The notes beneath the pieces are model-generated. The model saw nothing but the letters and a program-made list of their open reading frames with translations, did no database searches and had not been told where the DNA came from. From contig JBDKUD010000215.1 of assembly GCA_039679805.1 (NCBI GenBank), positions 1-54,086 on the forward strand: 54,086 bases of DNA, given 5' to 3'. This DNA comes from Syntrophomonas sp. GTDB taxonomy: Bacteria > Bacillota > Syntrophomonadia > Syntrophomonadales > Syntrophomonadaceae. A program made the position numbers and the translations under genes. This document shows, piece by piece, positions 16,150 through 53,006 of this stretch (position 1 is the first letter of the stretch; each line of letters opens with the position of its first letter).

Positions 16150-16152
16150 GAG

Positions 16153-16968: not shown

Positions 16969-16973
16969 TTTAT

Positions 16974-19414: not shown

Positions 19415-19437
19415 GCTGAATACGGTTAGATACTGCG

Positions 19438-35795: not shown

Positions 35796-35875
35796 AAAAC
35801 AAAACCCTCTCCGCTTTCTACAAAATATTTTCAAAGCGCTGCATAGCAATATGTTAACGTACTACAAAACAGCAT

Positions 35876-35906: not shown

Positions 35907-35930
35907 TTATAACTTTAGCAGCCAAATAAT

Positions 35931-36017
35931 TATCCTTTCCGCCATGGGAGGCATGGCCGTTTCCAGCCAAACCCTGTTCTCTCGCCATAGTCGTGATGAC
36001 CTCAGGCAAGGAGAATC
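35931..36017 (-). promoter_or_regulatory. Moco/Wco-type riboswitch-like aptamer, copy B (divergent variant)
   Basis: Minus strand reads GATTCTCCTTGCC...AGGGT-TTGGCT-GGAAAC-GGCCAT-GCCTCCC-ATGGC-GGAAAGGA. The 5' CCGAG block is replaced by CCTTG. Confidence 0.5.
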
Positions 36018-36212
36018 GGATAGATATTAAATTTAAACAATATTAAAACTTTCCTATATTTTATTACAGTTTAATTTATATCAGTTTTTAGCTAAAAGTC
36101 AAGATAAGTAATTTTTTGTTGTTTATTGTTTATTAATAGTATATAAATAGGAGGAGGAGAATAAATCCTTTCATTGAAGAATATAACTATATATTTTTAT
36201 TATTTTGGAGTG

Positions 36213-36297
36213 TATTTCCGAGTCTTTTGTCCTGTTGCTATGAAAGACCAAAGGGTGTCTTCGGAAACGGACGCGCCTCCCATGGCGGAAAGGAAAA
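36213..36297 (+). promoter_or_regulatory. Moco/Wco-type riboswitch aptamer, copy C (first of a tandem pair)
   Basis: TATTTCCGAGTC...AGGGT-GTCTTC-GGAAAC-GGACGC-GCCTCCC-ATGGC-GGAAAGGAAA. P1 is TTTCC/GGAAA. It is followed by hairpin CTTTTCA/TGAAAAG (36317-36338) with no T-tract. Confidence 0.6.
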
Positions 36298-36379
36298 CGG
36301 AATATATTAATAGAAGCTTTTCAGAAAGGGGTGAAAAGTGCCATTCCCTAAATAAGTCAATTTTATAAGCTGTGAGCAG

Positions 36380-36477
36380 AATTTCCGAGTCTTTTGTCCT
36401 GCGGCATTCTTGGCTATGGCGAAAGATCAAAGGGTGTATTTGGAAACGAGTACGCCTCCCATTATGGAAAGGAGAAA
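36380..36477 (+). promoter_or_regulatory. Moco/Wco-type riboswitch aptamer, copy D (second of a tandem pair)
   Basis: AATTTCCGAGTC...AGGGT-GTATTT-GGAAAC-GAGTAC-GCCTCCC-ATTAT-GGAAAGGAGA. Confidence 0.65.
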
Positions 36478-36493
36478 ACTGAATTTAGAAATT

Positions 36494-36537
36494 GAAGCTT
36501 TTTCCATTCTTTATTGGGAAAAGCTTTTATTATTTTT
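36494..36537 (+). terminator. Intrinsic terminator (expression platform of copy D)
   Basis: GAAGCTTTTTCC / GGGAAAAGCTT stem followed by TTATTATTTTT. Confidence 0.7.
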
Positions 36538-36665
36538 AGAAAGAGGTGAGAAGTACTAAACAATAAGTTTGTAAGATTAAACTAGTCGAATGAGACAAAA
36601 TTTAGTGGACTCATTACCTAATCCCCAATCAAAGAATTATAGCAGGGTAGAAGGAGAGTTGAAAA

Positions 36666-39600: not shown

Positions 39601-42254
39601 TCACGACCTATGCTGGTACATTAATCCCGAGTGGCTCTAGTTATACCATTAAAGATGTAGGCAGCGCGCCTCCTCTCACTGAAGTCGGTTTCAGACCCGT
39701 CAGTTTGATGTTTGATAGTGCGGACAACTTATATGTGGCGGAAGGCAACTGGGACCGCGTCAGAAAGATCGGTATCGATGGCAGTGTTACTTTAGCCGCA
39801 GGGTATGGGTATGCAGCCGGTGTAGCTAATGTGTTTAATGGTGATAATATTCCGGCTACTGCAGCATTGCTGAATAGTGCCCAATTTGCGTCCCTGGATA
39901 AATGGGGAAACATGTATATTATGGATAATCAAAGCATGCGGATTCGTTTTGTTAAAAACCCGCAGGTAGTAGCGGAAGCACCTCCGGTTGTTAACAGCGC
40001 AGTAACTTCTGATGAGACACATATTGTACTCACCATGAGCCGAGCATTATTAGGCACTGCAGTAAACCCCGCAGCTTTCACAGTATCAGGAGCAGCTTCA
40101 AATCCTACAGTAACCGCAGCAGCAGTTTCAGGTACCAGTGTGACACTGACACTAAGTTCAGCAATTGCTTATAACGATACGATAACCGTAAGTTACGCAA
40201 AAACAGGCTTCGACAGTGCAGCTGGGTATAGCAATTTGACTGCAGTGGAAAACTTCACCAATCAGCCAGTAACAGTAACCGTGCCTGCTCCGGGAACTGT
40301 TGCTGTACCGACGGCTGTACCCTCAGGGACTGCTGTAACGGCAGGCACTCAGGTAACGCTGACAACGATGACTGCAGGTGCAACCATATATTACAGCCTG
40401 GACGGCAGCGACCCGACAGCAGCAAGTACAGCATATAACGGCCCGATTACCATTAATAATCCTGTAACCATCAAGGCTATCGCAGTTAAGGACGGTATGA
40501 TAAACAGTACAATCCTGACAGTGTCCTATACAATCAAAAGTGGCAATGGTGGGCCTTCTAGTTTGCCCACTTGGCCGGATGATGCTACATTGACAGTTAG
40601 CAAAAATCAAACTACAGCAACCCTTACCTGGACGGAAGCCACCGGTGAGGTGACCAAATATAGAATATATCGCGGCGTGTCTGGAATTGCTGATACACTG
40701 ATTGCTACAATTGATGCTCCGGCAACAACTTATACAGATACAACACTACAATCAGGTGGTTATACTTATATCTTCAAAGTTGAAGCCGGGAATAACGCAG
40801 GCTGGACCAACAGCGGACCCAGCGCCCAGACTGAGGGCGGACAAAACCCCTTGATTCTTGATGGGGCCTATTTAACTACAGCCACTCCCAGCAGCAGCAC
40901 TTCTGATACAGGAGAATCCGTTGATGACAGCACTAGTGTACCGGTCAAACCAACGATCAAATTCATATTTGAAAGAAGTGTGGCACAAGATGAACTCTGG
41001 TCAAACAATAAGTTATGTTTTACCATGAAAGACAGCTCTGGTGCCAGCGTTTCTTTAAATGTTTTTAAAATTTCAAATGGTACTGAAATCAACCCGAACG
41101 AAAGGCATAATTTATTTATCACGCCCTTAAGCAATCTGACTGCGGGAAATACTTATTATATTACTATAAGTAAAAATTTACAGGCCAATAACGGCAAGAC
41201 GCTTGGTGAAGCTTATGACGGCAAAGATATTGTAATCAGCTTTACTGTGGCCGGGGGTACAAATTCCGGCGGGGGCACTGTTACTACGGATGGTCCCACC
41301 TATACCAACGGTTACGGCTCTGTCGATCCGGCTGTCGGGGCGAGCGTCGCCCTGGATGAAGCAGCCATGGTAGTCATACCGCCCGATGCCCTTAAAGAAA
41401 CTGGTTCTGTCAATGTAAACATCAAGAAGGTAACCACATCGCCAGCAGTTCCAGCAGGATTTAAAGTGGCCGGCGATGTGTACGAGTTTAGTGTAGGAAA
41501 TAAGACATCCTACAGCTTTGCTAAAAGTGTTGCTTTAACGTTTAATTTTGACGCCTCCCAAATCGAGGCGGACGAAGTTCCGGAAATTTACTACTATGAC
41601 GAAGTCCTGAAAAAATGGGTCGGCATCGGGGGCACAGTGTCCGGCTCGACCATCACTGTGCAGGTAAATCACTTTACGAAGTTTGCCGTACTGGCTGTCC
41701 CCAAAGCCGTAGAACCAGTAAAACCAGTAGTACCAGTAGTATCATTTACCGATGTTAACGGAAATTGGGCGGCAGCTAATATAACAAAATTAGCTGCAAC
41801 AGGTGCAATTAAGGGATATACGGACGGAACCTTCAAGCCGGACAACAATATTACCAGGGCTGAGTTCGTTACGGTTCTGGTCAAAGCACTTAAATTAGCG
41901 CCTGCAAGCGGAAAAACCTTCAACGATACTGCAAACAGCTGGAGCAAAGATTACATTGCAACCGCTGTTGCCAATGGTATTATCAATGGTTACAGTGATA
42001 CCACATTTGGCCCTGATGATCCCATCACCCGCGAACAAATGGCGGTGATAATTGTTAAGGCTGACAAGTTAAGCAAAATTCCGAGTGGAAAAATATTTGC
42101 CGACAACGGTGCAATTTCAGCCTGGGCCAAAGATGCTGTCAGCACGGCCAGCGGAAACAGTATTATCGCAGGGTACGCAGACAATACCTTTAGACCCCAA
42201 AATTATGCTAGCAGGGCTGAAGCAGTTACGGTCATTGTCAAAATATTGAAATAA
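36666..42254 (+). CDS. 1862-aa secreted cell-surface protein: Big_5/SbsA-Ig modules, Big_1-like and SwmB-like Ig domains, NHL-repeat propeller, chitobiase-C-like domain, FN3, three SLH domains
   Basis: TTG start 9 nt after AAGGAGAG, with a signal peptide. APDTTAPSVSSSDPANAATGVAINKTVALTFSE (Big_5). NHL repeats GNLYIADTQNSRIREV and similar. GATIYYSLDGSDPT. SLH triplet at 41745-42251. Confidence 0.9.
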   Translation: MRLKRIPLILLLSLIMVLTVGGLTVYAGTNLPNVVSYGVYNFDPNSNDVTTTVPQGTVVSTGNDGVIYNNPPWTTLTDVPYVFGNNVGIGIEFAVNVIPEAYWTANQACFHMYDASNTPVPINVIRLGTVYDGTNGNRNYIFVVPQGQLQPVSTYKIIIDSTLQSNNTMTAGKQQEITLSTAAAPDTTAPSVSSSDPANAATGVAINKTVALTFSENISAGSTYDQISFKDGSNADVLFTKGISGSTLTLDPVSDLDYCTYTVTIPADAVKDAANNDLANEYSLTFSTGLSATISRSRATAGASFTINITGAKDASDTLLTGNNTVTVTNGGAEVYRGDVAFTDGAANVTIPASSTPNSITTVGTYNLTVAIAGVTEQPTVPLTINAGSIDSTQSTAVIDQALSKGTTRAIAVTLKDIFGNPIANKNIKTKVTIANNYSITNESYTVDGTTMTASGFTTAVYTDVSGQYTVNVVMPGAIDPGDGVSIQIAQNNGTSFIGDPFAYYEPIPTPMVTNATSDATHIVLTMDQPLLGTAADTNAFTIHGAASNPTVANAVVSGTNVSLTLNAAIAYNETITLDYARTGINDLNNGPGSQVADFTSQPVINNTPEHAAAPLLVSAASNVQGNVITVIFDKEMAALPAAPAGFSVAVDGASDVVTEVANNTDRAKVELLLTTAINYGQTVTISYSPGTVTALDNGALAGFTDQAVTNNTIQDGYITTLLGDGSSGNSGDNGPATSATMARTIYGCTVVDEMGNIYISDSSNGKVREIAAITHTQFGINMTAGNIYTVAGTGLTRSYAVTDEGQLATAVNLMNSANGIAVDDSGNLYIADTQNSRIREVANTDHNQYGITMTTGCIYTIAGVGATGLTSNTYTTAIAEEGVAATTAHLCNPNALIFDTTGNLYIVDQNNNRIRKMDTSGIINTVAGTGTTNPTADSGPAISFNMRPAAITFDSLGNIFIGDGICGRIYKMDTGGNITTYAGTLIPSGSSYTIKDVGSAPPLTEVGFRPVSLMFDSADNLYVAEGNWDRVRKIGIDGSVTLAAGYGYAAGVANVFNGDNIPATAALLNSAQFASLDKWGNMYIMDNQSMRIRFVKNPQVVAEAPPVVNSAVTSDETHIVLTMSRALLGTAVNPAAFTVSGAASNPTVTAAAVSGTSVTLTLSSAIAYNDTITVSYAKTGFDSAAGYSNLTAVENFTNQPVTVTVPAPGTVAVPTAVPSGTAVTAGTQVTLTTMTAGATIYYSLDGSDPTAASTAYNGPITINNPVTIKAIAVKDGMINSTILTVSYTIKSGNGGPSSLPTWPDDATLTVSKNQTTATLTWTEATGEVTKYRIYRGVSGIADTLIATIDAPATTYTDTTLQSGGYTYIFKVEAGNNAGWTNSGPSAQTEGGQNPLILDGAYLTTATPSSSTSDTGESVDDSTSVPVKPTIKFIFERSVAQDELWSNNKLCFTMKDSSGASVSLNVFKISNGTEINPNERHNLFITPLSNLTAGNTYYITISKNLQANNGKTLGEAYDGKDIVISFTVAGGTNSGGGTVTTDGPTYTNGYGSVDPAVGASVALDEAAMVVIPPDALKETGSVNVNIKKVTTSPAVPAGFKVAGDVYEFSVGNKTSYSFAKSVALTFNFDASQIEADEVPEIYYYDEVLKKWVGIGGTVSGSTITVQVNHFTKFAVLAVPKAVEPVKPVVPVVSFTDVNGNWAAANITKLAATGAIKGYTDGTFKPDNNITRAEFVTVLVKALKLAPASGKTFNDTANSWSKDYIATAVANGIINGYSDTTFGPDDPITREQMAVIIVKADKLSKIPSGKIFADNGAISAWAKDAVSTASGNSIIAGYADNTFRPQNYASRAEAVTVIVKILK
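38818..39958 (+). other. NHL-repeat beta-propeller region of the 1862-aa protein
   Basis: Six repeats of the type GNIYISDSSNGKVREI, GNLYIADTQNSRIREV, GNLYIVDQNNNRIRKM, GNIFIGDGICGRIYKM, DNLYVAEGNWDRVRKI and GNMYIMDNQSMRIRFV. Confidence 0.8.
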
Positions 42255-42282
42255 CGAAGAGCTTAAATTAAAAGTAAATAAG

Positions 42283-42319
42283 GGGGCGGGTTCGCTTTTC
42301 GTGGCTCGCCCTTCTTTTT
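42283..42319 (+). terminator. Intrinsic terminator after the 1862-aa gene
   Basis: GGGCGGG...CTCGCCC stem followed by TTCTTTTT. It resembles the terminator at 28292-28326. Confidence 0.65.
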
Positions 42320-42378
42320 AAAATGGTTGTTGGCAATTATATCAGCAAATACCGATTTGTTTTTAAGGGGGAGAGACA

Positions 42379-44403
42379 ATGCTTTTTGAAAAAAGAGGCC
42401 CATTGATTTCCATGATCATTCTGGTTGCAATGCTAACGCTGACATTTCCGGTTTTTGCGTTTACCACCGATATTTCCCTGACCAGCGTTAGTGTAAATGG
42501 AAATACTTATCTGGTGACCGGGGATAATGCCGTAGTGAACGAGTCTTTTAATGCTGGTGATCAACCGAGGTTCATTTTGAATTTCAGTCATAATGTGAGC
42601 AATACACTCGACGCAAACCTTGCTAGGCTGTCTATGGTTAAGATCACTTCTGGCGTCGAGCAGGTAATCCCCACAAGCACCTATGGCGGGCTGACGGGTA
42701 TGGGACTGGTAATAAGGCCGGTCAGCGGGCTTGAGAATGGTAATTATAAGATCATAGTGGCACAGGGTATCCAGGCGAATGCTGGTACGATCGAAGAAAC
42801 CTACAGTATATATTTCAATGTGGGAGGCAGCCCGTCCGGCACAGGTGGCGGGATGATAAGTGAAGATGCCCATAAAATAGTCTTTGATATCAAGGGTATT
42901 GCAGCAGATACCAAATATAACGCAACCGTAAAACAGGATAATCAGATCTTTTATCCTCAAAGTGAGAATACTTTCTTTCTTGAACCAGGTGACTATACCT
43001 ATGCCGTGAGTGCATCAGGTTACGTTGCAGTTACCGGCGAGCTTACTGTCAGCAAAGACGAAACCATTCCCATCACCATGACCGACCATGTTCTTATCAC
43101 TTTCAGCACTACGCCTGCTGATGCATCGGTGCGTGTCAAGGTGGGGCAGAATGAATTTATCGATCCATATCAAGTAAATATATTTAAACTTACACCCGGT
43201 ATAGAGTATACATATATCGTTGAGGCGAAAGGCTATATCACGAAAGCTCAGCGATTCACACCGATGGTAAATGAAACGAAAACCGTCCAGCTTTTAGTGG
43301 GCGGTGCAGCAGGCAGCTATTGCGAGCAGGGCAACGGCGGCAATACTCTGACCATGCTTGTACCGGGGTCTTCCCGAATCACTGTCAAGGAGGATAACTT
43401 AGATTATTCTTACAATCTGATATCCGGCTCTTTTGACGGGAGTAAGGAGATTACTTTCGGTTTTACTATGGGAGCGGGGGTTAATAATTTTGGCGACGGT
43501 TCTGGCTTTAAAACCAACAATATGCCCAAGATCGCGGTCTACAAGAGCTATAAGAATGGACCGCAGGGTAACCCGGTAGCGGATTATAAGTCAGGCAACG
43601 GCACTCTCAAATACATAGGATTTAATGCAGGAGCACCCGAGGGGAAGCTTATTACCATCGGCCTGACGAAGGGAGCTTTAAAGGACGGTACTTATGTTCT
43701 TGTATTTGGCAAAAACTTATGCGGAAATAATGTAAACAAAACCCTGGGTAAGGATGTCGTGTTTGAATTCGCAATAGGCCAGAGCGGCAGCAATACTACA
43801 GTAACTGAGCCGTCCCAACCGGTTACTCCGGTAACCGAAGCTGTTTTTTCTGATGTCACGGAAAACAGCTGGTATAAAGAAGCTGTTAACTATGTAGTAA
43901 AAAATGGATTGTTCAAGGGCACTTCAGACAGCACCTTTGATCCCGACCTGCCCATGAACAGAGGTATGTTCGTAACGGTATTGGGAAGGCTGGCTAAAAT
44001 TGACGGCAATTCGGTATACACAGCCCTAGGTTTTACCGATGTGAAGGCGGACGCGTACTATGCCAAATATGTTGCCTGGGCAGCGGAAAAAGGTATAGTT
44101 TCCGGCACCGGGAATGGGAATTTCTCTCCTGACAGGAGCATAACCCGTCAGGAGGCGGCTTCTATAATGTTTAGTTTTTCAAAACCAATGGGTTATGATC
44201 TAAACATTGCGGATAATGCAGCAATGAACAAATTCAATGACGCTTCCCGCGTGGCTGTATGGGCAGCAGATGCAGTGAACTGGGTATTAAGTAAAAAGGT
44301 GATGGGCGGCAGCAACGACGGTTCCCTTAATCCCGGGGGAACTGCTACCCGTGCCCAGGTGGCCCAGATAATTATGAACTTCGTAAATAATGCGGGAAAA
44401 TAG
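42379..44403 (+). CDS. 674-aa secreted SLH-anchored protein with Big_5-like and PEGA-like beta-sandwich modules
   Basis: RBS AAGGGGGAGAG and a signal peptide. PEGA-like repeats (EPGDYTYAVSASGYVAVTGELTV and TPGIEYTYIVEAKGYITKAQRF). SLH triplet at 43846-44400. Confidence 0.85.
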   Translation: MLFEKRGPLISMIILVAMLTLTFPVFAFTTDISLTSVSVNGNTYLVTGDNAVVNESFNAGDQPRFILNFSHNVSNTLDANLARLSMVKITSGVEQVIPTSTYGGLTGMGLVIRPVSGLENGNYKIIVAQGIQANAGTIEETYSIYFNVGGSPSGTGGGMISEDAHKIVFDIKGIAADTKYNATVKQDNQIFYPQSENTFFLEPGDYTYAVSASGYVAVTGELTVSKDETIPITMTDHVLITFSTTPADASVRVKVGQNEFIDPYQVNIFKLTPGIEYTYIVEAKGYITKAQRFTPMVNETKTVQLLVGGAAGSYCEQGNGGNTLTMLVPGSSRITVKEDNLDYSYNLISGSFDGSKEITFGFTMGAGVNNFGDGSGFKTNNMPKIAVYKSYKNGPQGNPVADYKSGNGTLKYIGFNAGAPEGKLITIGLTKGALKDGTYVLVFGKNLCGNNVNKTLGKDVVFEFAIGQSGSNTTVTEPSQPVTPVTEAVFSDVTENSWYKEAVNYVVKNGLFKGTSDSTFDPDLPMNRGMFVTVLGRLAKIDGNSVYTALGFTDVKADAYYAKYVAWAAEKGIVSGTGNGNFSPDRSITRQEAASIMFSFSKPMGYDLNIADNAAMNKFNDASRVAVWAADAVNWVLSKKVMGGSNDGSLNPGGTATRAQVAQIIMNFVNNAGK

Positions 44404-44428
44404 GACTATCAGAAAATATATTATAGCA

Positions 44429-44469
44429 AAGGTGAGGCGCCCCTTCGGGGACTGCTTCACCTTTATTTT
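44429..44469 (+). terminator. Intrinsic terminator after the 674-aa gene
   Basis: AAGGTGAGGC...GCTTCACCTT with an inner CCCC/GGGG stem, followed by TATTTT. Confidence 0.7.
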
Positions 44470-44772
44470 CTAATGTAATGACATTTTGAGTTGTTGGCTT
44501 AGCGATAGTATCCTCTTCCGACTCCTTTAAACTCACACTTTCATCATATCCCTAATATTTGTTTATTCTCTCATTTATGGTCACAGCTCACTAAACTCTT
44601 CAGCTTGTCTTCTTATAGATTCCCAGCTTGCAGGCCCATATCCCGGCAGAATATGGCAGCAGATTATTTCAGCAATAATAGACCGCGTTGTCCTAAAGGC
44701 TGACGAGTCTTTAATTACATGTCTTGGCCCGCTATTTAAGGATTTATTAACAACCGAGTCCATCTATTACCA

Positions 44773-44802
44773 TTGACCTATGTGCGTGATAGCCTTGATA
44801 AT
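44773..44802 (+). promoter_or_regulatory. Candidate sigma-A promoter for the 44849 gene
   Basis: TTGACC (-35), an 18-nt spacer, then GATAAT (-10). No riboswitch-like element lies between it and the gene. Confidence 0.4.
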
Positions 44803-44848
44803 ATGACATGGATTATAAACCTTGTATACAAAGGAGAGTGAAAAATCC

Positions 44849-46081
44849 ATGCATATCCTTAAACGTAATCCTTTATTATCTACATTTTTAATAATACTGC
44901 TTTTATTTACGTCACTAATTGCAGGTGCCCAGACAGTACTGGCAGGTGACGGCAGCGGCGGCGGGAAAAATCCACCTTTATTACGGAGTGCCTGTTTGAC
45001 GACTATTAATAATAATGTCTCTGCCACAGGTGATTCTTTGGGAGAGAATATGTCGCTGGCCAATAATCCTCCTACGATTAGAATTGAATTTGCAACCAAT
45101 ATTGCAGATAACACAGTATGGAATGATAACAAAAATTATGTAACGTTATATGACGGTGACCATAAGGCAGTATCTTCTGATGTAAGCAGAATTGACCCTA
45201 CCGTAACTTTTGCGGAGAGAAATTATATTTTTGTTAAACCTTCGGCAGCATTACAACCGGGGTCATATACAATTGTTGTAGATGCCAGGCTTACTTCCAA
45301 GAACGGAATATCATCTGGTCAGGAACAAACGGTAAGTTTCAGTGTTGCTGGAAATACTGACAGCAATAATAACACTAACAACGATACCGGCAGCGGTACC
45401 AATGCTGGTAATAATAACAATATTGGTAATAATACCGATACCAATACAAACAATAATAACAATGATACCAATGATACCAATGATACCAGTAACAACAACG
45501 ATACTGGCAGCAATACTAATAACAGTAATAACAGCAATAATGATAGCAGTATTGTTTTAACAGACATTAGCGGACATTGGGCTGGAAACAATATTAATAA
45601 ACTCGTTAAATCAGGTGTTATCAGCGGTTATCCCGATGGGACATTTAAACCTGATAAAACTATCAGCAGGGCAGAGTTTGTAACTATTATTGTTCGTGCT
45701 TTCAAACTGCCGCCCAAAGCAGGCAAAGTGTTTGCAGATACGGCTAATCATTGGGCTAAGGACTCTATTGCCACAGCCGCTGCATACGGGATAGTTAATG
45801 GTTATAACTCAACTAAATTTGGCCCCGACGATAATATTACCCGGGAACAAATGGCAGTAATCTTAGATAAGGCTTTGAAACTTAACAATGCTGCAGGCGG
45901 CAAAAATTTCATCGACCAGGCTAAGATTTCAACATGGGCTAAAGATGCCGTTGTCAGAGTAAATCAAAATGGCATATTTGCAGGTTATCCGGATAAATCA
46001 TTTAAACCCAAAGCTAGTGCTGCTAGAGCAGAAGCAGCGACTGTTATTTTAAAAGCATTAGATAAAGTAGGAAGTAAATAG
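44849..46081 (+). CDS. Secreted Big_5-like domain protein with Asn/Thr/Asp-rich linker and three SLH domains
   Basis: I chose ATG 44849 (RBS AAGGAGAG) over the ORF-track TTG 44822. Signal peptide, then GDGSGGGK. Low-complexity linker at 45351-45549 and SLH triplet at 45557-46078. Confidence 0.85.
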   Translation: MHILKRNPLLSTFLIILLLFTSLIAGAQTVLAGDGSGGGKNPPLLRSACLTTINNNVSATGDSLGENMSLANNPPTIRIEFATNIADNTVWNDNKNYVTLYDGDHKAVSSDVSRIDPTVTFAERNYIFVKPSAALQPGSYTIVVDARLTSKNGISSGQEQTVSFSVAGNTDSNNNTNNDTGSGTNAGNNNNIGNNTDTNTNNNNNDTNDTNDTSNNNDTGSNTNNSNNSNNDSSIVLTDISGHWAGNNINKLVKSGVISGYPDGTFKPDKTISRAEFVTIIVRAFKLPPKAGKVFADTANHWAKDSIATAAAYGIVNGYNSTKFGPDDNITREQMAVILDKALKLNNAAGGKNFIDQAKISTWAKDAVVRVNQNGIFAGYPDKSFKPKASAARAEAATVILKALDKVGSK

Positions 46082-46101
46082 ATTAAGTTTAAAACTAAAT
46101 A

Positions 46102-46192
46102 ATCTCCGAGCCTGTTAACCTGAGGTTTAATGGTTTACAGGCCGATAGGGTGCAGTGGGAAACTGCTGTACCTCCCAGTGCGGAAAGGAGAA
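46102..46192 (+). promoter_or_regulatory. Moco/Wco-type riboswitch aptamer, copy E
   Basis: ATCTCCGAGCC...AGGGT-GCAGTG-GGAAAC-TGCTGT-ACCTCCC-AGTGC-GGAAAGGAGA. It is a close paralogue of copy A and begins 20 nt after the upstream stop codon. Confidence 0.7.
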
Positions 46193-46214
46193 GCTGATAC
46201 GGTTGGAATATCGC

Positions 46215-46245
46215 GGCGAAGTGCTTTGTGCAGTTCGCCTTTTTT
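46215..46245 (+). terminator. Intrinsic terminator (expression platform of copy E)
   Basis: GGCGAAGTG / CAGTTCGCC stem (one mismatch) followed by TTTTTT. It is nearly identical to the copy A terminator. Confidence 0.75.
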
Positions 46246-46364
46246 ATCGGCTCGCGGGAAATGTTTCATTATTATATAAGCGTCAATAAGATGATTAGTT
46301 AATATCTTTAAATTTGCTCCATATATCACAAAAACTGATGAATTAATTTCAAGGGGGTTATATA

Positions 46365-47138
46365 ATGATAAATGGGATTAGGGGAAAGAGACCATTAATA
46401 TTAGTCTTATTGGCTGTATTATGCTGCATGTTTATAGCCCTGCCGGTATTTGCCGCTGAAGGTGATGGAAGCGGAGGAGGCAGGGATGTACCTCTTGCTC
46501 TGGCTTCATCCAGTCTGGCTAATGGACAGAGCAATGTCCCGGTTATGGCCAATATTAATCTTGCTTTTAACAAGAATGTAGTTAACCTGGCAGTCAAAGA
46601 TAATAATATGAAATGTTTCAGCCTTTCCGGTAATGGCATTAGTGTCCCCATTCAGGTGATTATGCCGGATGATCAGGTTGATTTCGAACATCGCCGGAAT
46701 ATTGATATTGATCCTTTGCAGGATCTGAAACCAGGTACTCTTTATAAATTAGTAATTTCAGGTCAGCTCCAGGCCAAAAACGGAATGAGCTTGGGTACTC
46801 CTGTGTCTGTCAGCTTTACAACTGCAGGTGCTGCCAATGTAAATCAAAACACCAGCACCGGACCAAATACCGGCAGCATTAAGTCCGGCTCTGCTCAAAC
46901 AACACAGCCAACAACATCAGCTGAAAAGGTAACAACTGAGAAAGCTGCCAAAGAAAATACCAAGGCAGCTGCAGAGAATACTAAAGCAAAAGCAGCAAAA
47001 GCAAAAACAAAATCTGCAGCAAAAACTAAAAGTGAAGAAAAGGAAACTAAATCGACCAGTACTAAAGGCATTGCTGCTGCAGCAGGACTGATAATAGCAG
47101 CTGGAGTATATGGGTATTATAGATTCAGTTATAAATAA
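46365..47138 (+). CDS. Small secreted Big_5 (SbsA-Ig-like) domain protein with Lys/Ala/Thr-rich spacer and C-terminal TM anchor
   Basis: RBS AAGGGGG and a signal peptide, then EGDGSGGGR, then SSSLANGQSNVPVMANINLAFNKNVV. C-terminal helix GIAAAAGLIIAAGVYGYY. Confidence 0.85.
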   Translation: MINGIRGKRPLILVLLAVLCCMFIALPVFAAEGDGSGGGRDVPLALASSSLANGQSNVPVMANINLAFNKNVVNLAVKDNNMKCFSLSGNGISVPIQVIMPDDQVDFEHRRNIDIDPLQDLKPGTLYKLVISGQLQAKNGMSLGTPVSVSFTTAGAANVNQNTSTGPNTGSIKSGSAQTTQPTTSAEKVTTEKAAKENTKAAAENTKAKAAKAKTKSAAKTKSEEKETKSTSTKGIAAAAGLIIAAGVYGYYRFSYK

Positions 47139-47231
47139 AATCTTTATGGGGGCTGTAAGAATCAAAAGCCTTACAGTCCCGGCTTACCAAAAGCCAATCA
47201 AAAATCACCACAAATAGTTAAAGCTTAGGAG

Positions 47232-48245
47232 TTGAAGACAACGAAGAAAAAACTAATATATTCATTTTTAGCACTCGGACCCCTGGCTTTTATATTTATT
47301 ACCTTATTCGTAGGCAGATATCCAATCTCTATACCAACGGTGGCCAAAATATTGTGGTGTAAAATAACTTTGACACCATGTAATATTCCGGAGATGTACC
47401 AAACTATAGTTTGGGATATTCGTTTGCCCAGGGCTATACTTGGTGCCCTGGTAGGCGGCTGCCTGGCTATCAGCGGCGCTTCATTTCAGGGATTGTTCCG
47501 CAATCCCCTGGTAAGTTCAGGTATTCTGGGTGTAACTTCCGGTGCCGGATTTGGTGCGGCGCTGGCAATTATTCTTTTCAAGACAACTGCACCGATTTAC
47601 ATATCCGCCTTTCTTTTTGGCGGTCTGGCGGTTTTATTCAGCTTTTTAATAGGAAAGGTTTATAACACAACACCGACTATAATGCTGGTTCTGGGTGGTA
47701 CTATTGTATCATCGGTGTTCTCAGCCTTAATTTCATTTACCAAATATGTGGCTGATCCAACTAATGAACTGCCGGCAATAGTTTTTTGGCTGATGGGCAG
47801 CCTGGCTTCAGCCCGGTATCGTGACATCATGATAGCTGGCATACCTATGGTAATAGGGATAGCCGGCCTGCTGGCAGTGAGATGGCGGATCAATGTCCTT
47901 TCCATGGGCGATAAGGAAGCTCATTCTTTAGGGATTAATACTAAATTAAATAAAGGAATAGTAATAGTTTGTGCTACATTGGCTTCAGCCGGAGCCGTAT
48001 GTGTAAGCGGAATTATTGGCTGGGTCGGATTAGTTATTCCTCACATCGGACGTATGCTGGTAGGCAATGACAACCGCATACTGATACCGGCCAGTCTCTC
48101 CCTGGGGGCCTGCTTTCTTATTTTGGTCGATAATCTCAGCAGGATGTTAACCGGATCAGAAATACCGTTGGGTATTCTCACCGCACTGGTTGGCGGCCCC
48201 TTCTTTGTATATTTGTTAAAGCGGACCAAAGGAGGAGGGTGGTAG
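47232..48245 (+). CDS. FecCD/BtuC-family ABC transporter permease
   Basis: TTG start after TAGGAG; 337 aa and polytopic. RLPR...GA.LA.SG...Q...RNPL..P..LG motif and C-terminal GGPFF.YLL. Confidence 0.85.
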   Translation: MKTTKKKLIYSFLALGPLAFIFITLFVGRYPISIPTVAKILWCKITLTPCNIPEMYQTIVWDIRLPRAILGALVGGCLAISGASFQGLFRNPLVSSGILGVTSGAGFGAALAIILFKTTAPIYISAFLFGGLAVLFSFLIGKVYNTTPTIMLVLGGTIVSSVFSALISFTKYVADPTNELPAIVFWLMGSLASARYRDIMIAGIPMVIGIAGLLAVRWRINVLSMGDKEAHSLGINTKLNKGIVIVCATLASAGAVCVSGIIGWVGLVIPHIGRMLVGNDNRILIPASLSLGACFLILVDNLSRMLTGSEIPLGILTALVGGPFFVYLLKRTKGGGW

Positions 48246-48248
48246 ATT

Positions 48249-49106
48249 ATGCCTTTAATAGAAGCTAAGAATATATCCTTTGGTTATGATGAGCACGATG
48301 TATTTCAGGATATTAATTTCCGGGTAAAAAAGGGTGAGATTTTTTTCCTGTTAGGCCCGAACGGCTGTGGAAAAACAACTCTTCTTGATTGTGTGCTGGG
48401 ATTATTAAAGCCCAGAAACGGAAATATATTAGTAAACGGTACCAATATTAACGATATTCGTCCTGAAGCCATAGCCAAACAAATAGCTTATGTACCCCAG
48501 AGTCACGAAAAAACATTTCCTTATAAAGTTATAGATATAGTACTGATGGGACGGGCTTCATATATAGGATTGTTTAATTCCCCATCAGACGAGGATATGT
48601 CTATAGCCGAAGAAGCTTTAAAAATGGTGGGAATCAGCAGGTTAAAAGACAGACGTTATACACAGTTAAGCGGTGGTGAAGGGCAGCTGGTGATGATTGC
48701 CAGGGCCCTGGCACAGAAAACACCCTTGGTTGTTATGGACGAACCAACTGCTCATCTGGATTTTAAACATGAGCTGGTTATTATGGAAACAATAGTTCAA
48801 CTGGTTAAGGAAACAGGATTGGCTATACTTATGGCTACCCATTTTCCCAATCACGCTTTTTACTTCGAAAACAATGATATTGCTACCCGGGTGGCTATGA
48901 TGAGCCAGGGCAATTTTATAGCGGTGGGGCGTGCTTCCGAAGTTCTGTCGGAGAAAAATCTGAAATTACTCTACAATATTAATGCCCGGGTGGTGTCATA
49001 TGCTATTGACGAAGAACGGGAGCTTAAGCAAGTTATTCCCATCAGCACTGCAGCATCGGCTGAATCTATTGATATGAGAGAAGGTACATATAATGAAGCA
49101 AAATAA
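48249..49106 (+). CDS. ABC transporter ATP-binding protein (FepC/BtuD-like)
   Basis: Walker A GPNGCGKTT, signature LSGGEGQ, Walker B LVVMDEPT. Confidence 0.9.
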   Translation: MPLIEAKNISFGYDEHDVFQDINFRVKKGEIFFLLGPNGCGKTTLLDCVLGLLKPRNGNILVNGTNINDIRPEAIAKQIAYVPQSHEKTFPYKVIDIVLMGRASYIGLFNSPSDEDMSIAEEALKMVGISRLKDRRYTQLSGGEGQLVMIARALAQKTPLVVMDEPTAHLDFKHELVIMETIVQLVKETGLAILMATHFPNHAFYFENNDIATRVAMMSQGNFIAVGRASEVLSEKNLKLLYNINARVVSYAIDEERELKQVIPISTAASAESIDMREGTYNEAK

Positions 49107-50187
49107 AAACCATTATAGCTGGTTTATAATCTTATGCCTGATATTTACCCTGCTCTTGGCAGGCGGATGTACAAGCAAACAAATCGGAGAATCACAATCT
49201 GCCGCCAATACCAGAACAATAACTGATTGTGCCGGCAGACAGGTAAAAATTCCGGTTAAAATAAACCGGATTGCTTGTTTGTGTCCGGAATCAGGATATA
49301 CCCTGGCGATGTTTGGAAAAGGGGATAAAATAGTAGCTGTAGTAGGCGGATTAAAGAGAGATGTTATTTTTACCAATATGTATCCGCAAGTAAAAAATTT
49401 ACCGGTACCCAAAACCAGTGCTTCAATTAACATTGAAGAATTGGTACGAAGCAATCCGGATATTGTATTTGTAAAAGAGGATACTATGCGCAGTGAAGCT
49501 GAAGTACAAAAATTAAATATGAGTCACATACCGTTTTTGGTGGTGACATATAACAATATAGAACAACAGCAATTTGCTGTTGATATGATCGGCAAAGTTG
49601 TTGGGAGCGAGAATAAAGCTAAAGTATATCGGGCCTATTACAAGAAACTGGTCGATTTGGTTCAGTCGCGGGTGGCAGACATTCCTATGAAGGATCGGGT
49701 CAGGATATATCATTCTATCAGTGAAGCTACCAGGACTGATGCCAAGGGGACCCTGGCAGCTGATTGGACCAATATAGCCGGAGCCAATAACGTTTCCGTA
49801 ACTGCAAATTTAAAACAAGTAGAGGGTAATTATTTTGCCAGTCTGGAACAGATTCTCTTGTGGGATCCGGATTATATATTTGTTAATGATCCCATAGTAG
49901 TTAAATATATAATGGGTAATAATCAATGGTCATCGCTCAAGGCTGTAAAAAACAAGAGGGTTTTGCCTTTGCCTGACGGTATTTCCCGCTGGGGTCATCC
50001 TTCTTCACCGGAGACTCCGCTGGCCATTCTCTGGACAGCCAAAACCTTATATCCCGATAAATTTAAGGATGTTGATATGGCAGCCGAGATAAAATACTTC
50101 TATAAAGAATTCTTTGGTTATCAGCTATCAGACGTGGATGTGCAGAAGATATTAAGTGGTGTTGGAATGAGAGAGTTATTAAAATAA
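49093..50187 (+). CDS. Periplasmic-binding-protein (BtuF/FhuD class, PF01497-like) substrate-binding probable lipoprotein
   Basis: Overlaps the ATPase gene by 14 nt. The N-terminal hydrophobic segment ends in LLAGGC. Size and position are typical of cluster-A binding proteins paired with FecCD permeases. Confidence 0.75.
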   Translation: MKQNKNHYSWFIILCLIFTLLLAGGCTSKQIGESQSAANTRTITDCAGRQVKIPVKINRIACLCPESGYTLAMFGKGDKIVAVVGGLKRDVIFTNMYPQVKNLPVPKTSASINIEELVRSNPDIVFVKEDTMRSEAEVQKLNMSHIPFLVVTYNNIEQQQFAVDMIGKVVGSENKAKVYRAYYKKLVDLVQSRVADIPMKDRVRIYHSISEATRTDAKGTLAADWTNIAGANNVSVTANLKQVEGNYFASLEQILLWDPDYIFVNDPIVVKYIMGNNQWSSLKAVKNKRVLPLPDGISRWGHPSSPETPLAILWTAKTLYPDKFKDVDMAAEIKYFYKEFFGYQLSDVDVQKILSGVGMRELLK

Positions 50188-50227
50188 ACATGTTGCCAAC
50201 AATACTATTAGATTGGGAGGTTAATTG

Positions 50228-50956
50228 GTGAAAATATATGTCGCTATAGATGATACAGATAGTTTGGAAGTTGGAGCAACCGGACAATCCGCCAACGAAT
50301 TGCGAAAACTTATTAAAGATAAAGGCTGGGGTACAACAGAGCCGGTTACCAGGCACCAGTTGCTGCTGCATCCGGATGTACCATATACTTCTCACAACAG
50401 TTCCATGTGCTTCATCGCTGATATGGAGGAGGGCAGTTTGGAGGAATTTATTAATTGTGCAGCCGACTTTCTAAAAACAACGAGTGCCCCAGGCTCAGAC
50501 CCCGGACTTTGTGTGGCGGATTATGAATGCATAAAAAACATAGATAAACTGATGAATTTTGGATTTAAGGCTAAAGAGGAAGTATTAAGTAAGGAACAAG
50601 CTTATAAAACCGCGGAAGACTGTGGTGTTCATCTTTCTGAACACGGTGGGACCGGGCAGGGTATCATTGGTGCACTGGCAGCTATTGCACTTCGGATGAC
50701 AGGCAACGATGGAAGATTTCAGGGCCGAACTCAACTGAAAGACATCGGGGAAAGTATGCAAGTAAAGGAAATAATCTCAACTACGGAGATAGAGGAAGTG
50801 CAATCGATAGACGGGCAGGTGCTGACTGACAATGAGATACTTATTATAGGAGATAAAATAAAAACAGTTCTGCTTGATGGCAAAAGAAAACTCCTGGTGC
50901 ACCGTGAAGAAGACAGTTGGCATACCTGTAATAATAAACATCTGAAAAAATATTAG
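50228..50956 (+). CDS. Uncharacterised enzyme-like protein, paralogue 1 of 3 (possible TiaS N-terminal kinase-domain-like fold)
   Basis: I chose GTG 50228 (7 nt after GGGAGG), which gives MKIYVAIDDTDS like its paralogues. Motifs HQLLLHPDVPYTSHNSSMCF, SDPGLCV and HGGTGQGIIGALAA. Confidence 0.7.
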   Translation: MKIYVAIDDTDSLEVGATGQSANELRKLIKDKGWGTTEPVTRHQLLLHPDVPYTSHNSSMCFIADMEEGSLEEFINCAADFLKTTSAPGSDPGLCVADYECIKNIDKLMNFGFKAKEEVLSKEQAYKTAEDCGVHLSEHGGTGQGIIGALAAIALRMTGNDGRFQGRTQLKDIGESMQVKEIISTTEIEEVQSIDGQVLTDNEILIIGDKIKTVLLDGKRKLLVHREEDSWHTCNNKHLKKY

Positions 50957-51025
50957 GTGAGTAGCTAAGAATATTAGATCATAAACGATAGCAGCCACAA
51001 GGATACTATTAGGAGGTAACTGATC

Positions 51026-51766
51026 ATGAAAATATATGTTGCTATTGATGACTCCCGACAGCTTGACGGGGGTAAGGCAGGTGTAACTGCTTCTTCATTA
51101 ACCAAAGCCATAGAAGATAACGGATGGGGGACATGTACAATTCCAAGTCGGCATCGGCTATACCCAAATCCTGTTACCGGCTGTAAAAAACACAACACTG
51201 CACGTAGTTTTTCTGCAGAAATAAATGAAGAAAATCTGAGTGAATTTATTGACTATGCCTGTAATATGATAAAAACAATTGTGACTCCTGATTCCAATAC
51301 CGGGTTGGCTATTGCTGTCCCTGAACAAATGGAAAATACTGATGAGCTAATTGAATATGCGTATAAAGCCAAAGAAGAATTGGTGAGTAAGGATGAAGCT
51401 TTTGAATTGGCTAAAAAACCAGGTATATATTTATTTGAATTAAGCGGCAGCGGGCAGGGTATAATCGGTGCACTGGCTGGAGCCGGGCTTAATATGACGG
51501 GAAACGATGGGCAATTCAGAGGCAAACTGGAATTAAGTAAAGAGGAATACTATATTGCTACCGTAAAGGAAATTATAGAGAAAACATATGTTGAGCAAGT
51601 AAAAAATATGGATTTCGAAAATTTAAGTGATGATGAATATGTCCGCATGGGTGAGAAGGTAAAGGTAGTAAAGCTTGATGACAAATACACGTTGTTGGTC
51701 TTTCCAACTGAAATAGAATACCCGAAATGGCAAACGAGTACTACTCATATGCTTAGAATTTTTTAA
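51026..51766 (+). CDS. Uncharacterised protein, paralogue 2 of 3 (motif-degenerate copy)
   Basis: MKIYVAIDDSRQ..., HRLYPNPVTGCKKHNTARSF, and SGSGQGIIGALAGAGL retained. RBS AGGAGG. Confidence 0.7.
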   Translation: MKIYVAIDDSRQLDGGKAGVTASSLTKAIEDNGWGTCTIPSRHRLYPNPVTGCKKHNTARSFSAEINEENLSEFIDYACNMIKTIVTPDSNTGLAIAVPEQMENTDELIEYAYKAKEELVSKDEAFELAKKPGIYLFELSGSGQGIIGALAGAGLNMTGNDGQFRGKLELSKEEYYIATVKEIIEKTYVEQVKNMDFENLSDDEYVRMGEKVKVVKLDDKYTLLVFPTEIEYPKWQTSTTHMLRIF

Positions 51767-51812
51767 TCAAGATGTGGCAGGTCAATTAAGGCCATATACG
51801 AGGAGGGTAATA

Positions 51813-52574
51813 ATGAAAATTCTTGTTTCCATTGATGATACAGATACTATTAAAACGGATGGTATTGATGTTATAGGCACAGGGGAACTGGCGGGTATGA
51901 TAGCAGAGGCCATAGAAAGAAACAAATGGGGCCGGTGTGCACCGATTACCCGGCACCAGTTGCTTATACACCCGGATATACCATATACATCTCACAATAG
52001 TTCGATGTGCTTCGAAGCAGACATCGACACTATTTTTTTGAATCAGCTGATTGATTTTGCAGCTGATTTTTTAACTTGTGAAAGCACACCCGATTCAGAC
52101 CCGGGACTATGTGTCGCGGTTACTGATCGTATAAGCCGGCCGGGCTGGCTTATTGCTTTTGGTTATATGGCAAAAAATTATATAATGACCAAACAGGATG
52201 CTTATGACATGGCCAAAAGATTAAACATTCACCTTTCAGAACATGGCGGAACCGGTCAGGGAGTTATTGGTGCACTGGCGGGAGCAGGATTACGCCTTAG
52301 CGGGAATGACGGGCGATTTAAAGGAAAAATGAAGATTAAAGCAAAAGATAATATCATATCGGTAGCTGGTATTCGCTCGCAGGGAAAGGTGGATATGGTA
52401 AAGTGCCTGGAAGAGGGAATAATACTGCAGGATAATGATATGATTACTCTGGGCGATTCTGTTAAAACAGTATTACTATACGGAAAAGCAGTCTTGCCAG
52501 TTTACCCGATAAAAGAAGAGGAAAATCAGGTCCGTTGGCAAACTTATTCAAAGAAGCAATTAAAAGATTTCTAA
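51813..52574 (+). CDS. Uncharacterised enzyme-like protein, paralogue 3 of 3
   Basis: I chose ATG 51813 (RBS GAGGAGGG) over the ORF-track GTG 51774. MKILVSIDDTDT, HQLLIHPDIPYTSHNSSMCF, SDPGLCV, HGGTGQGVIGALAGAGL. Confidence 0.7.
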   Translation: MKILVSIDDTDTIKTDGIDVIGTGELAGMIAEAIERNKWGRCAPITRHQLLIHPDIPYTSHNSSMCFEADIDTIFLNQLIDFAADFLTCESTPDSDPGLCVAVTDRISRPGWLIAFGYMAKNYIMTKQDAYDMAKRLNIHLSEHGGTGQGVIGALAGAGLRLSGNDGRFKGKMKIKAKDNIISVAGIRSQGKVDMVKCLEEGIILQDNDMITLGDSVKTVLLYGKAVLPVYPIKEEENQVRWQTYSKKQLKDF

Positions 52575-52608
52575 TTTGTTAAAGCAAACTCGAGGAGATG
52601 ATAGGCAA

Positions 52609-52809
52609 ATGTGGCGTATTAACGATAAAGGAAAGCATGAGTTCTCGGGCGGGAAGGAAGATTGGAATAATGCTGCTCAGATAGCGGAAAGCTGTTCTGA
52701 ATTTAAACCTGATGATGAGGATGAAATGGTGGCTGATGAACCAGTTTCCTGCTATAACTGCCAGTACCGGCGTTGGACAGTTGAATCTTTTGTATGTTAT
52801 AAGAAATAG
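52609..52809 (+). CDS. Small acidic Cys-containing hypothetical protein (66 aa)
   Basis: ATG 52609 downstream of GAGGAG. CSEF...CYNC...C spacing suggests a possible small metal-binding or zinc-ribbon-like protein. I recognised no family. Confidence 0.4.
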   Translation: MWRINDKGKHEFSGGKEDWNNAAQIAESCSEFKPDDEDEMVADEPVSCYNCQYRRWTVESFVCYKK

Positions 52810-52976
52810 GCATTACGAAAAAGGTTGACAGTTGAATCAATAACAGATTAACATTGAATACAGGTAGAATGGTTGAGGCGGTAGGAACATGTAGCCGACA
52901 GTTTACCGATAACAGCTTTATTTTTAGTTGCAGTACGGTAGCAGGGATTATTTCTAAGGTTTGTATTTGTAATTCT

Positions 52977-53006
52977 GGCTCCCGGTCCGGGAGCCTTTTT
53001 AGTTTT
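52977..53006 (+). terminator. Intrinsic terminator inside the leader of the downstream ABC binding-protein gene
   Basis: GGCTCCC-GGTCC-GGGAGCC followed by TTTTTAGTTTT, 47 nt upstream of the TTG start at 53053. Confidence 0.75.

Follow-up and report, generated by a model that had tools for sequence, protein, structure and literature searches.

A P3-less RF01055 leader before a MolBC-A-related importer cassette in Syntrophomonas sp.

What does a cofactor riboswitch govern when the genes behind it resemble those of an iron-complex importer, and what would such an importer carry? Syntrophic fatty-acid oxidisers such as Syntrophomonas and Pelotomaculum need tungsten- or molybdenum-containing formate dehydrogenases and aldehyde oxidoreductases, and the acquisition of W and Mo by syntrophs in sulfidic digesters is poorly known. 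The question arises at positions 46082-52995 (+) of a contig of Syntrophomonas sp. (JBDKUD010000215.1, assembly GCA_039679805.1), of which the 54,086 nt analysed here are referred to as the window. At this locus a leader of the RF01055 class, the class of the molybdenum and tungsten cofactors (Moco and Tuco), precedes genes for a surface protein with a Big_5 domain and for an ATP-binding cassette (ABC) importer of the FecCD/BtuC family. We establish the aptamer, its terminator, the identities of the genes and their conserved synteny. As to the cargo, the sequences lead us to favour, on balance and with modest confidence, a MolBC-A-type importer of tungstate and molybdate, including their thio-forms, that is controlled by cofactor feedback and works with accessory proteins.

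Three importer parts and their closest relatives

The leader, the surface protein and the importer are encoded by the following features.

46092-46206, +: RF01055 aptamer lacking P3 (copy E); Rfam 62.2 bits, gathering score 36, E 1.3e-12
46215-46245, +: intrinsic terminator, GGCGAAGTGC-TTTGT-GCAGTTCGCC and then T6
46365-47138, +: Big_5 anchor protein; signal peptide, Big_5 domain (E 5.9e-11), C-terminal transmembrane anchor
47149-47195, +: intergenic stem-loop (11 bp, 47149-47180) with a small 5-bp hairpin (47181-47195); no T-tract
47232-48245, +: permease of a type II ABC importer, FecCD/BtuC family, MolB-like; FecCD 2.3e-85
48249-49106, +: ABC ATPase, MolC-like; ABC_tran 1.4e-33; starts 3 nt past the permease stop
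49093-50187, +: lipoprotein binding protein of cluster A (class III), MolA-like clade; Peripla_BP_2 1e-17; Cys26

The domain matches confirm that a FecCD permease, an ATPase and a cluster-A binding protein follow the Big_5 gene, as had been proposed in a sequence-only reading of this stretch. The ATPase and binding-protein genes overlap by 14 nt. The putative TTG start of the permease gene (47232) directly abuts an AGGAG Shine-Dalgarno-like sequence (47227-47234), and in relatives AGGA is immediately followed by GTG.

All three transporter parts were compared with all PDB sequences, and the binding protein was placed by a family profile and by an AlphaFold2 (AF2) model submitted to Foldseek. 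The best match of the permease was MolB (HI1471), at 1.7e-75 and 257 bits with 41.5% identity over 318 columns; HmuU reached 169 bits (1.7e-48), BhuU 154, FhuB 136 and BtuC 135 (3.6e-38). The ATPase was likewise nearest to MolC (HI1470; 3e-43, compared with 1.4e-33 for HmuV). The family profile of the binding protein matched the uncharacterised 4ovk (2e-43) and MolA (5.2e-41), and then FhuD2 (5e-11), a BtuF (2e-9), IsdE (8e-8), ShuT (3e-4) and E. coli BtuF (7e-3). The top Foldseek match of the AF2 model (predicted local distance difference test, pLDDT, 89.6) was the MolA-tungstate structure 3psa, with E 7e-23, TM-scores of 0.76/0.84 and a root-mean-square deviation (rmsd) of 2.7 Å, and the two proteins share 26% identity. 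Each of the three parts has its best structurally solved relative in MolBC-A.

In Haemophilus influenzae, MolBC-A (HI1470/71 with MolA, HI1472) imports molybdate and tungstate and has been defined structurally as a type II system. MolA binds both oxyanions; the system complements ModABC as a route of lower affinity, and molybdate represses its transcription (PMC4031551, PMC4245157). The sequence-only reading had started from the premise that the FecCD/BtuCDF class carries bulky chelates and cofactors; MolBC-A contradicts it, being of type II and carrying plain molybdate and tungstate.

Importers of other kinds fitted less well. For the cobalamin importer BtuCDF, the two BtuC models scored 238 bits (cut-off 461) and 185 bits (cut-off 334), the E values with BtuF lay between 2e-9 and 7e-3, and no cobalamin riboswitch (RF00174) was found in the window. 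Among the siderophore and haem importers considered (FhuBCD, FecCDE, FepBCD, IsdEF, and HmuTUV), FecC reached 180 against a cut-off of 396 and IsdE 17 against 299. All NCBIfam equivalogs for B12, haem, siderophore and F420 systems remained far under their cut-offs. Because the equivalogs fall short, RF00174 is absent and both the profile and Foldseek rank MolA ahead of the cobalamin and haem proteins, the placement favours the MolA clade; set beside BtuF, FhuD2, IsdE and ShuT, the binding protein shows no tight clustering with cobalamin or haem binders. ModABC, TupABC and WtpABC were also rejected: neither the type I permease domain (BPD_transp_1) nor a class II oxyanion-binding domain occurs in 46365-52809, and WtpC was matched via the generic ATPase domain only. 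On this point the sequence-only reading, which had set the importer apart from the ModABC/TupABC type, was right.

The relatives of the binding protein belong to Syntrophomonadaceae (up to 76% identity) and other anaerobic Bacillota. In public databases its homologues are annotated as 'iron complex transport system substrate-binding protein'.

The leader and the reach of its control

Six Rfam elements were detected in the window, one thiamine pyrophosphate (TPP) riboswitch and five RF01055 aptamers, and the P3 stem is deleted from all five in the Rfam alignment. Copy E retains P1 (46103-46107 paired with 46187-46191), P2, P4, and P5 but not P3, and the minimum-free-energy fold of the aptamer with its terminator gives the same Rfam helices. 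It carries the conserved cores CCGAG, AGGG, GAAA, CCUCCC and GGAAAGGA that mark members of RF01055. For comparison, related loci were collected by a scan with one genome per species, which gave 80 loci, and the window proteins were placed on them by tblastn. A covariance model (R1) built from 28 P3-less aptamers was then run on these loci; a regular-expression match in locus L079 (1987-2110) was left out of the model building as a probable false positive. Copy E scores 105 bits with R1, and all 12 related aptamers that were re-tested pass Rfam's own threshold. Among 38 homologous aptamers, 24 of the 32 base pairs show compensatory (double) changes, and 90.5% of the pair cells are canonical, compared with at most 48% when the partners are slid.

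P1 begins 22 nt past the stop codon (46079-46081) of an SLH gene (44822/44849-46081), in line with the earlier estimate of about 20 nt after the stop of the 44849 gene. That reading had also held that no terminator intervenes and that copy E has one of its own. Both statements agree with our results: the sole match near the stop (46018-46039) is weak and lies within the coding sequence, and the leader terminator at 46215-46245, with a 10-bp stem containing one mismatch, a 5-nt loop and a T6 tract, provides the expression platform expected of RF01055. A hairpin with a T-tract follows 53 of 58 related aptamers. When the transcript is cut before the 3' arm of the terminator, the invariant GGAAAG (46183-46188) pairs with CUUUGU of the terminator loop and 5' arm; judging from this partial-transcript fold, the pairing is a plausible candidate for an anti-terminator.

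Regulski et al. correlated the P3-less variant of RF01055 with tungsten-cofactor (Tuco) metabolism (PMC2408646). The ligand of the class is unstable, and even for the E. coli representative the evidence for Moco/Tuco is genetic (PMC2408646). On the basis of the variant to which it belongs, we propose Tuco as the ligand of copy E. With a plentiful supply of the metal-pterin cofactor, P1 would close, the terminator would form and transcription would halt at about 46245. Under cofactor scarcity, GGAAAGGAG would be available for pairing with the loop and 5' arm of the terminator, and RNA polymerase would read through. At the position where relatives have a promoter directly before P1, the leader has a weak candidate (ATTAGA-16-TAGATT, 7/12). 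The upstream gene contains a better match (45951-45978, 9/12, with TG), and read-through from the upstream riboswitch-controlled SLH operon into the leader is equally possible.

The transcription unit appears to extend beyond the importer. Four more genes on the same strand (50225-52809), missed in the sequence-only reading, follow position 50187.

50225-50956, +: T1, protein with the TCKD fold of TiaS
51026-51766, +: T2, protein with the TCKD fold of TiaS and degenerate motifs
51813-52574, +: T3, protein with the TCKD fold of TiaS; open reading frame (ORF) callable from 51774
52576-52809, +: 77-aa protein with four conserved Cys (C..CxxC..C)
52977-52995, +: first strong intrinsic terminator past the cassette; 8 bp, 7 of them GC pairs, then a T-run

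From the permease gene onwards the spacing is 3 nt, an overlap of 14 nt, 37, 69, 7, and 1 nt, and the downstream genes contain no strong terminator before 52977. The operon very probably runs as a single transcript through the three T genes and the Cys gene to 52977-52995, and would then comprise eight genes.

A point that could limit the reach of the leader is the stem-loop behind the Big_5 gene. It had been described as a hairpin at 47152-47175 without a T-tract. The structure is real (-23.9 kcal/mol, z = -3.6 relative to shuffles) and has no T-tract, whereas its extent had to be corrected to 47149-47180, with a further hairpin up to 47195. Hairpins occur at the same position in several relatives, and their sequence is unconserved. 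The element is probably an mRNA 3'-end stabiliser or a partial attenuator that sets the ratio of Big_5 protein to transporter. It might instead end the transcript, so that the leader controls the Big_5 gene alone and the transporter and T genes have a promoter of their own. The stability of the hairpin and the odd start of the permease gene, with a Shine-Dalgarno sequence abutting the start codon, would suit this arrangement, and consensus scans are blind to weak or non-sigma-70 promoters. However, the hairpin lacks a T-tract, and the scan for internal promoters (consensus matches of at least 9/12) found none in 47139-47231 and none in 46246-46364; two promoter-like sites at 47235-47296 are inside the permease gene. 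The sequence-only reading, which had tied its case to the lack of an internal promoter behind the Big_5 gene, thus gains support for a leader that reaches the transporter. In addition, the aptamer of loci L003 and L004 stands directly before the permease gene, a lone distal aptamer precedes SLH, Big_5 and transporter genes together in 13 loci, and the order and tight spacing of the cassette are conserved. We therefore regard control of the Big_5 gene alone as highly improbable.

The order aptamer, Big_5, permease, ATPase, binding protein, T and, in part of the loci, Cys protein recurs widely among the 80 loci. It was found in Syntrophomonas, Pelotomaculum, Desulfotomaculaceae, Sporotomaculum, Thermincola, Phosphitispora, and Desulfosporosinus, and also in Eubacteriaceae, Dethiobacteria and metagenome-assembled genomes labelled Atribacterota. 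In Neobacillus and Bacillus the cassette is present and the aptamer was not found. The permease and the ATPase are each present in 55 of 59 loci, and in 57 of 59 the Big_5 gene immediately precedes that of the permease or of the binding protein. Linkage to the aptamer was counted in the 58 loci with at least 3.3 kb of upstream DNA. A same-strand upstream aptamer was found in 39 of them, immediately before the Big_5 cassette in 26 and farther upstream in 13, where an aptamer or a tandem pair precedes same-strand genes for SLH and Big_5 surface proteins. In these 13 related loci it is SLH genes of the S-layer type that separate the lone aptamer from the transporter cassette. The S. wolfei genome has about 15 copies of RF01055 (PMC2408646), from which the chance of meeting one aptamer in a given 8-kb same-strand interval is estimated at a few per cent.

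The individual arrangements are also informative. Besides L003 and L004, loci L034 and L036 have the aptamer directly before the cys/T genes, and in L083 a single aptamer stands ahead of a 1,236-aa protein and the entire cassette. These arrangements indicate that the riboswitch targets the transporter and T genes as such, and that they are not bystanders of the Big_5 gene. The suggestion that orthologous transporters in other genomes might also sit behind RF01055 is borne out across families of anaerobic Bacillota, and the claim that the leader controls a FecCD-class importer is upheld by the conserved linkage, by the aptamer placed directly before the permease gene and by the promoter-free intergenic region.

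Some loci depart from the standard layout. Additional Big_5 and binding-protein modules, in some cases with T and always lacking permease and ATPase, were seen in L003 and L004 (about 2675-3940 and 6983-11448) and in L010 and L012; in L004 a permease-less Big_5/binding-protein pair stands ahead of the aptamer in front of the full transporter. These modules resemble orphan binding proteins serving a shared permease. In Desulfitobacterium metallireducens (L081, 2919-9965), the cassette stands behind a CW_binding_2 wall-anchored protein in place of an SLH protein.

Partner proteins outside and inside the cell

The product of 46365-47138 had been described as a secreted Big_5 protein with a C-terminal transmembrane anchor, and a signal peptide, the Big_5 domain and a hydrophobic anchor were indeed found. 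Its mature N-terminus carries GDGSGGG, followed by the Big_5 Ig-like domain, a low-complexity Lys/Ala/Thr linker and the C-terminal transmembrane helix. The GDGSGGG motif is present in 48 of 58 cassette Big_5 proteins. In the anchor protein, G-D-G-S-G-G-G-x sits right after the signal peptide and before the Big_5 domain (at 46461); the same Gly-rich motif occurs in the SLH protein 44849-46081 (at 44945), and a variant, GNGDGQGQ, is found near 30630 in the gene 30529-31269. The Big_5 protein would be tethered on the outer face of the membrane. By analogy with other surface systems, it and the S-layer Big_5 proteins encoded upstream probably capture the substrate or hand it over outside the cell. 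An anchored Ig-like layer, in the wall or in the membrane, is a constant partner of the importer. A CopC-like nature of the Big_5 protein was considered and set aside: a weak precomputed match in D. metallireducens alone is a hint and no finding, and the window protein has no match to CopC even at E values up to 5.

T1, T2, and T3 are paralogous cytoplasmic proteins of 243-253 aa that match TiaS_TCKD, FLD and methanogenesis-marker-11 weakly in Pfam and NCBIfam. An AF2 model (pLDDT 86) retrieved the kinase domain (TCKD) of TiaS (5xob/3amt) in Foldseek with E 6e-11 over about 160 aa and an rmsd of 2.8 Å. An assignment to TiaS itself was rejected, with NCBIfam TiaS scores of 27-43 bits against a cut-off of 600. 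TiaS combines TCKD, FLD, OB and zinc-ribbon domains; since the last two are absent here, the T proteins share the catalytic fold of TiaS yet are not TiaS. Of the three, the middle paralogue (T2) no longer shows the conserved motifs PYTSHNSSMCF and IDDTD. More than 6,600 proteins annotated as 'hypothetical' belong to the family, and a T homologue directly follows the binding-protein gene in 59 of 68 loci. The Cys protein, which has no Pfam match, is kept after T in many loci, and a natural fusion of T and Cys proteins exists (P0217); the 77-aa protein is a partner of the T proteins. The T and Cys proteins probably bind or process the substrate in an ATP-dependent manner inside the cell. The de-repressed operon would thus yield a surface Big_5 protein, a MolBC-A-type importer and cytoplasmic T/Cys proteins.

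These proteins are also one reason to consider the salvage of a pterin-type molecule, such as molybdopterin, cyclic pyranopterin monophosphate (cPMP), a degraded or dephospho form, or the intact cofactor, which the T proteins would re-phosphorylate or activate. The T fold corresponds to the kinase domain that phosphorylates a heterocycle oxygen in TiaS, and T proteins are almost obligatory in the cassette. Moreover, type II importers carry cofactors such as B12 and haem, and the ligand of the riboswitch is the cofactor itself. On the other hand, metal-pterin cofactors are extremely labile outside proteins, and we know of no transporter for them. The closest relatives of the importer carry an oxyanion, and oxyanion transporters of the MOT1 type are found in the same operons. 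We consider pterin salvage the least probable of the explanations weighed here.

The substrate and the comparison with known systems

In the reading that we favour, an importer composed of a permease dimer, an ATPase dimer and the lipoprotein binding protein would take up tungstate and/or molybdate, possibly as thio-forms in the sulfidic habitat. It would constitute a second route beside Tup- or Mod-type systems, as MolBC-A does beside ModABC in H. influenzae. Because MolBC-A is the best relative of all three parts, a chelate or pterin substrate becomes unnecessary, and the metallophore-bound or pterin cargo suggested in the sequence-only reading is not needed to explain the importer; it is an unlikely alternative, with pocket loops unlike those of MolA and chelate binders in the clade in its favour. 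Another link to oxyanion uptake is provided by MOT1-like genes, which lie behind the cassette, in the same orientation, in about a dozen loci (e.g. L026, L029, L043, L051, L058, and L060). The window itself contains a gene for a molybdate transporter of the MOT1 family (PF16983; 17749-18873, -), which has no same-strand aptamer and which we also counted as such a link.

The direction of control bears on a further explanation, in which the importer carries an iron complex or another cation chelate and the Tuco riboswitch thereby supplies iron for tungstoenzymes rich in Fe-S clusters. Negative feedback by a cofactor agrees with the uptake of its metal but only poorly with a supply of iron: the switch would turn the importer off at abundant cofactor, just when the apo-enzymes need iron. 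The idea has a basis in Eubacterium limosum, where Tuco riboswitches lie upstream of two 'Fe ABC-type' operons, fetABC1 and fetABC2, that were read as iron importers in 2024, and where more cell iron was found on lactate (PMC11725836). Yet fetABC1, the operon with the aptamer-and-terminator design, rose under W limitation (PMC11725836), and its orthology, like that of fetABC2, to the present cassette is only putative. The homologues of the binding protein are annotated for iron complex transport and its clade includes the Fe binder YiuA; the 'iron' names of the homologues, however, are family-level annotation, and all NCBIfam equivalogs for iron, haem and siderophore systems are far under their cut-offs. 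Transport of iron seems to us improbable.

A difficulty for a plain oxyanion arises from the binding pocket. Across the binding-protein family, at 47-100% identity, the residues R89, D90, H207, S208, E211, R214, T215, S298, R299, W300, H302, S305, and E307 are invariant and are located in the presumed cleft loops. This conservation clearly suggests that the family binds one specific, conserved ligand. The invariants are mostly not shared with MolA, 4ovk or 4pag, so that the pocket differs from that of the only characterised oxyanion binder of the clade. Such a pocket, rich in Arg, His, Glu, and Asp, would be compatible with an importer for Mo or W bound to an organic ligand of the metallophore type, with the Big_5 and S-layer proteins acting as receptors. 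Type II importers and this clade of binding proteins are mostly chelate carriers (YiuA, HpCeuE), surface proteins are conserved in the same regulon, and a different chemical species would explain the extra system, given that oxyanion routes exist (MOT1 in the window, Tup in S. wolfei). Against this, all three parts are nearest to the oxyanion importer MolBC-A, and general domain and annotation scans revealed no genes for chelator biosynthesis (non-ribosomal peptide synthetases, NRPS-independent siderophore synthetases or similar) in the window or the 80 loci. To our knowledge, no Mo/W metallophore importer of this class has been reported in Bacillota. We judge transport of a Mo/W chelate to be unlikely, though somewhat less so than transport of iron.

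Beside the deviating pocket, several other observations weigh against a tungstate/molybdate importer under the control of this riboswitch. In Foldseek, the structural clade of the binding protein also holds YiuA, which binds Fe with catecholate fragments, and H. pylori CeuE, which binds Ni-His2; MolB may be the top match of the permease only because the permeases of the YiuA and HpCeuE systems are unsolved. An extra oxyanion route would be redundant unless its affinity or its chemical species differs. In S. wolfei a Tup-type transporter is under the same riboswitch (Swo-1-1; supplement of PMC2408646), and some loci have a MOT1-like gene in the cassette operon. The linkage has gaps as well. In 19 of the 58 loci, about one third, no aptamer was found within the 8-kb flank, and these loci include Desulfitobacterium sp. 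Sab5, D. metallireducens and Neobacillus. Since a search with filters off also gave no match in L006, L011, L040, L073, L075, and L081, the linkage is either frequent without being universal, or long SLH genes separate the cassette from an aptamer more than 8 kb upstream. Finally, the run search found the window sequence in DNA metagenomes from wastewater, freshwater and soil, and DNA metagenomes alone were matched when RNA runs holding it were sought.

Taken beyond the importer, the cassette could be an unrecognised, dedicated pathway for the acquisition and processing of W (or Mo) in anaerobic Bacillota, a view that we put forward tentatively and hold to be possible, not probable. Its substrate would be a species other than the free oxyanion, e.g. 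thiotungstate, thiomolybdate, or the mineral- or ligand-bound metal of sulfidic habitats. The T/Cys proteins would add a new ATP-dependent step between uptake and cofactor assembly, and the giant S-layer Big_5 proteins would often be included.

The assignment has consequences for annotation. Thousands of 'iron complex transport' genes in these organisms are more plausibly importers of W/Mo of the MolBC-A type. The reassigned genes probably include 'iron transporters' of the literature that are under Tuco riboswitches, and Tuco regulons would then be read differently. The cassette also supplies candidates for study: a binding-protein family whose pocket is invariant, a family of the TiaS kinase fold that is linked, with its Cys partner, to the cofactor regulon, and a surface Big_5 family with a conserved Gly-rich N-terminus. 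The finding would gain weight if the T/Cys pair or the Big_5 layer represents a new step in the handling of tungsten.

In the remainder of the window, single and tandem RF01055 aptamers stand before giant S-layer proteins (19311-28257 and 36204-46081). One of these proteins has 2872 aa with RCC1, FN3 and SLH domains, another 1862 aa with Big_5, NHL and SWM repeats and SLH domains, and two further SLH proteins have 674 and 419 aa. A 632-aa ORF without a Pfam family (28493-30391, -) is situated between the giant S-layer gene and a second gene of the Big_5 anchor type (30529-31269). Another RF01055 aptamer (35916-36033, -) precedes genes for a MoxR AAA+ ATPase (34863-35849), a DUF58-like protein (33687-34847) and a TgpA-like transglutaminase (31263-33662), which is an unusual cargo for a cofactor riboswitch. 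The TPP riboswitch (72 bits) precedes an ordinary-looking thiamine cluster (9418-17621) with a ThiD-ThiE fusion, ThiC, an NMT1/THI5-like ABC uptake system, ThiM and a HAD phosphatase.

Among the known systems, the classical RF01055 targets ModABC, TupABC and WtpABC share the task of Mo/W acquisition but differ in having a type I permease fold and a class II binding protein, and no similarity to them was detected here. The association of the riboswitch with FecCD-class genes has been on record since 2008. The supplement of Regulski et al. lists RNA->Crp->FepD->FepC->COG2014->TroA_e and ...FecCD->FepC->TroA_e for D. hafniense and RNA->TroA_e (Swo-1-5) for S. wolfei (PMC2408646). These contexts were tabulated without discussion, before the MolA classification of 2011, and the Big_5 and TiaS-like partners were not noted. 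The E. limosum operons fetABC1 and fetABC2 share with the present locus a P3-less RF01055 ahead of an ABC importer of the 'iron' type; among the best 120 relatives of a cassette binding protein from Eubacteriaceae, none came from E. limosum. None of the papers in the collection searched joins the riboswitch with MolBC. The odd combination of a B12-type pump with Mo/W nutrition has a known precedent in the oxyanion-carrying type II importers described in 2011-2014.

The Isd surface relay of Gram-positive bacteria, which leads from NEAT proteins to IsdE and IsdF, is comparable in that anchored Ig-like proteins are encoded with a cluster-A binding protein and a FecCD permease. No NEAT domain is present here, the match to an NCBIfam NEAT protein being due to SLH repeats, and the relay serves as no more than a plausible analogy for a transfer of substrate from Big_5 and SLH proteins to the binding protein. 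The closest parallel is MolBC-A of H. influenzae. Both systems combine a FecCD/BtuC-type permease, an ATPase and a class III binding protein and would serve Mo/W nutrition beside a classical Mod/Tup system, with expression repressed at plentiful metal (PMC4031551). They differ in identity (26% for the binding protein and 41.5% for the permease) and in the cleft-loop invariants, which are unshared. The present system, in contrast to mol, is Gram-positive, has a lipoprotein as its binding protein and is controlled by RF01055. The Big_5 anchor, the TiaS-fold proteins and the small Cys protein are its constant companions and have no described counterpart in mol. The recognition of these 'iron' systems as relatives of MolBC-A, their fixed cassette of Big_5, TiaS-fold and Cys proteins, and their distinct invariant pocket appear to be new to the literature.

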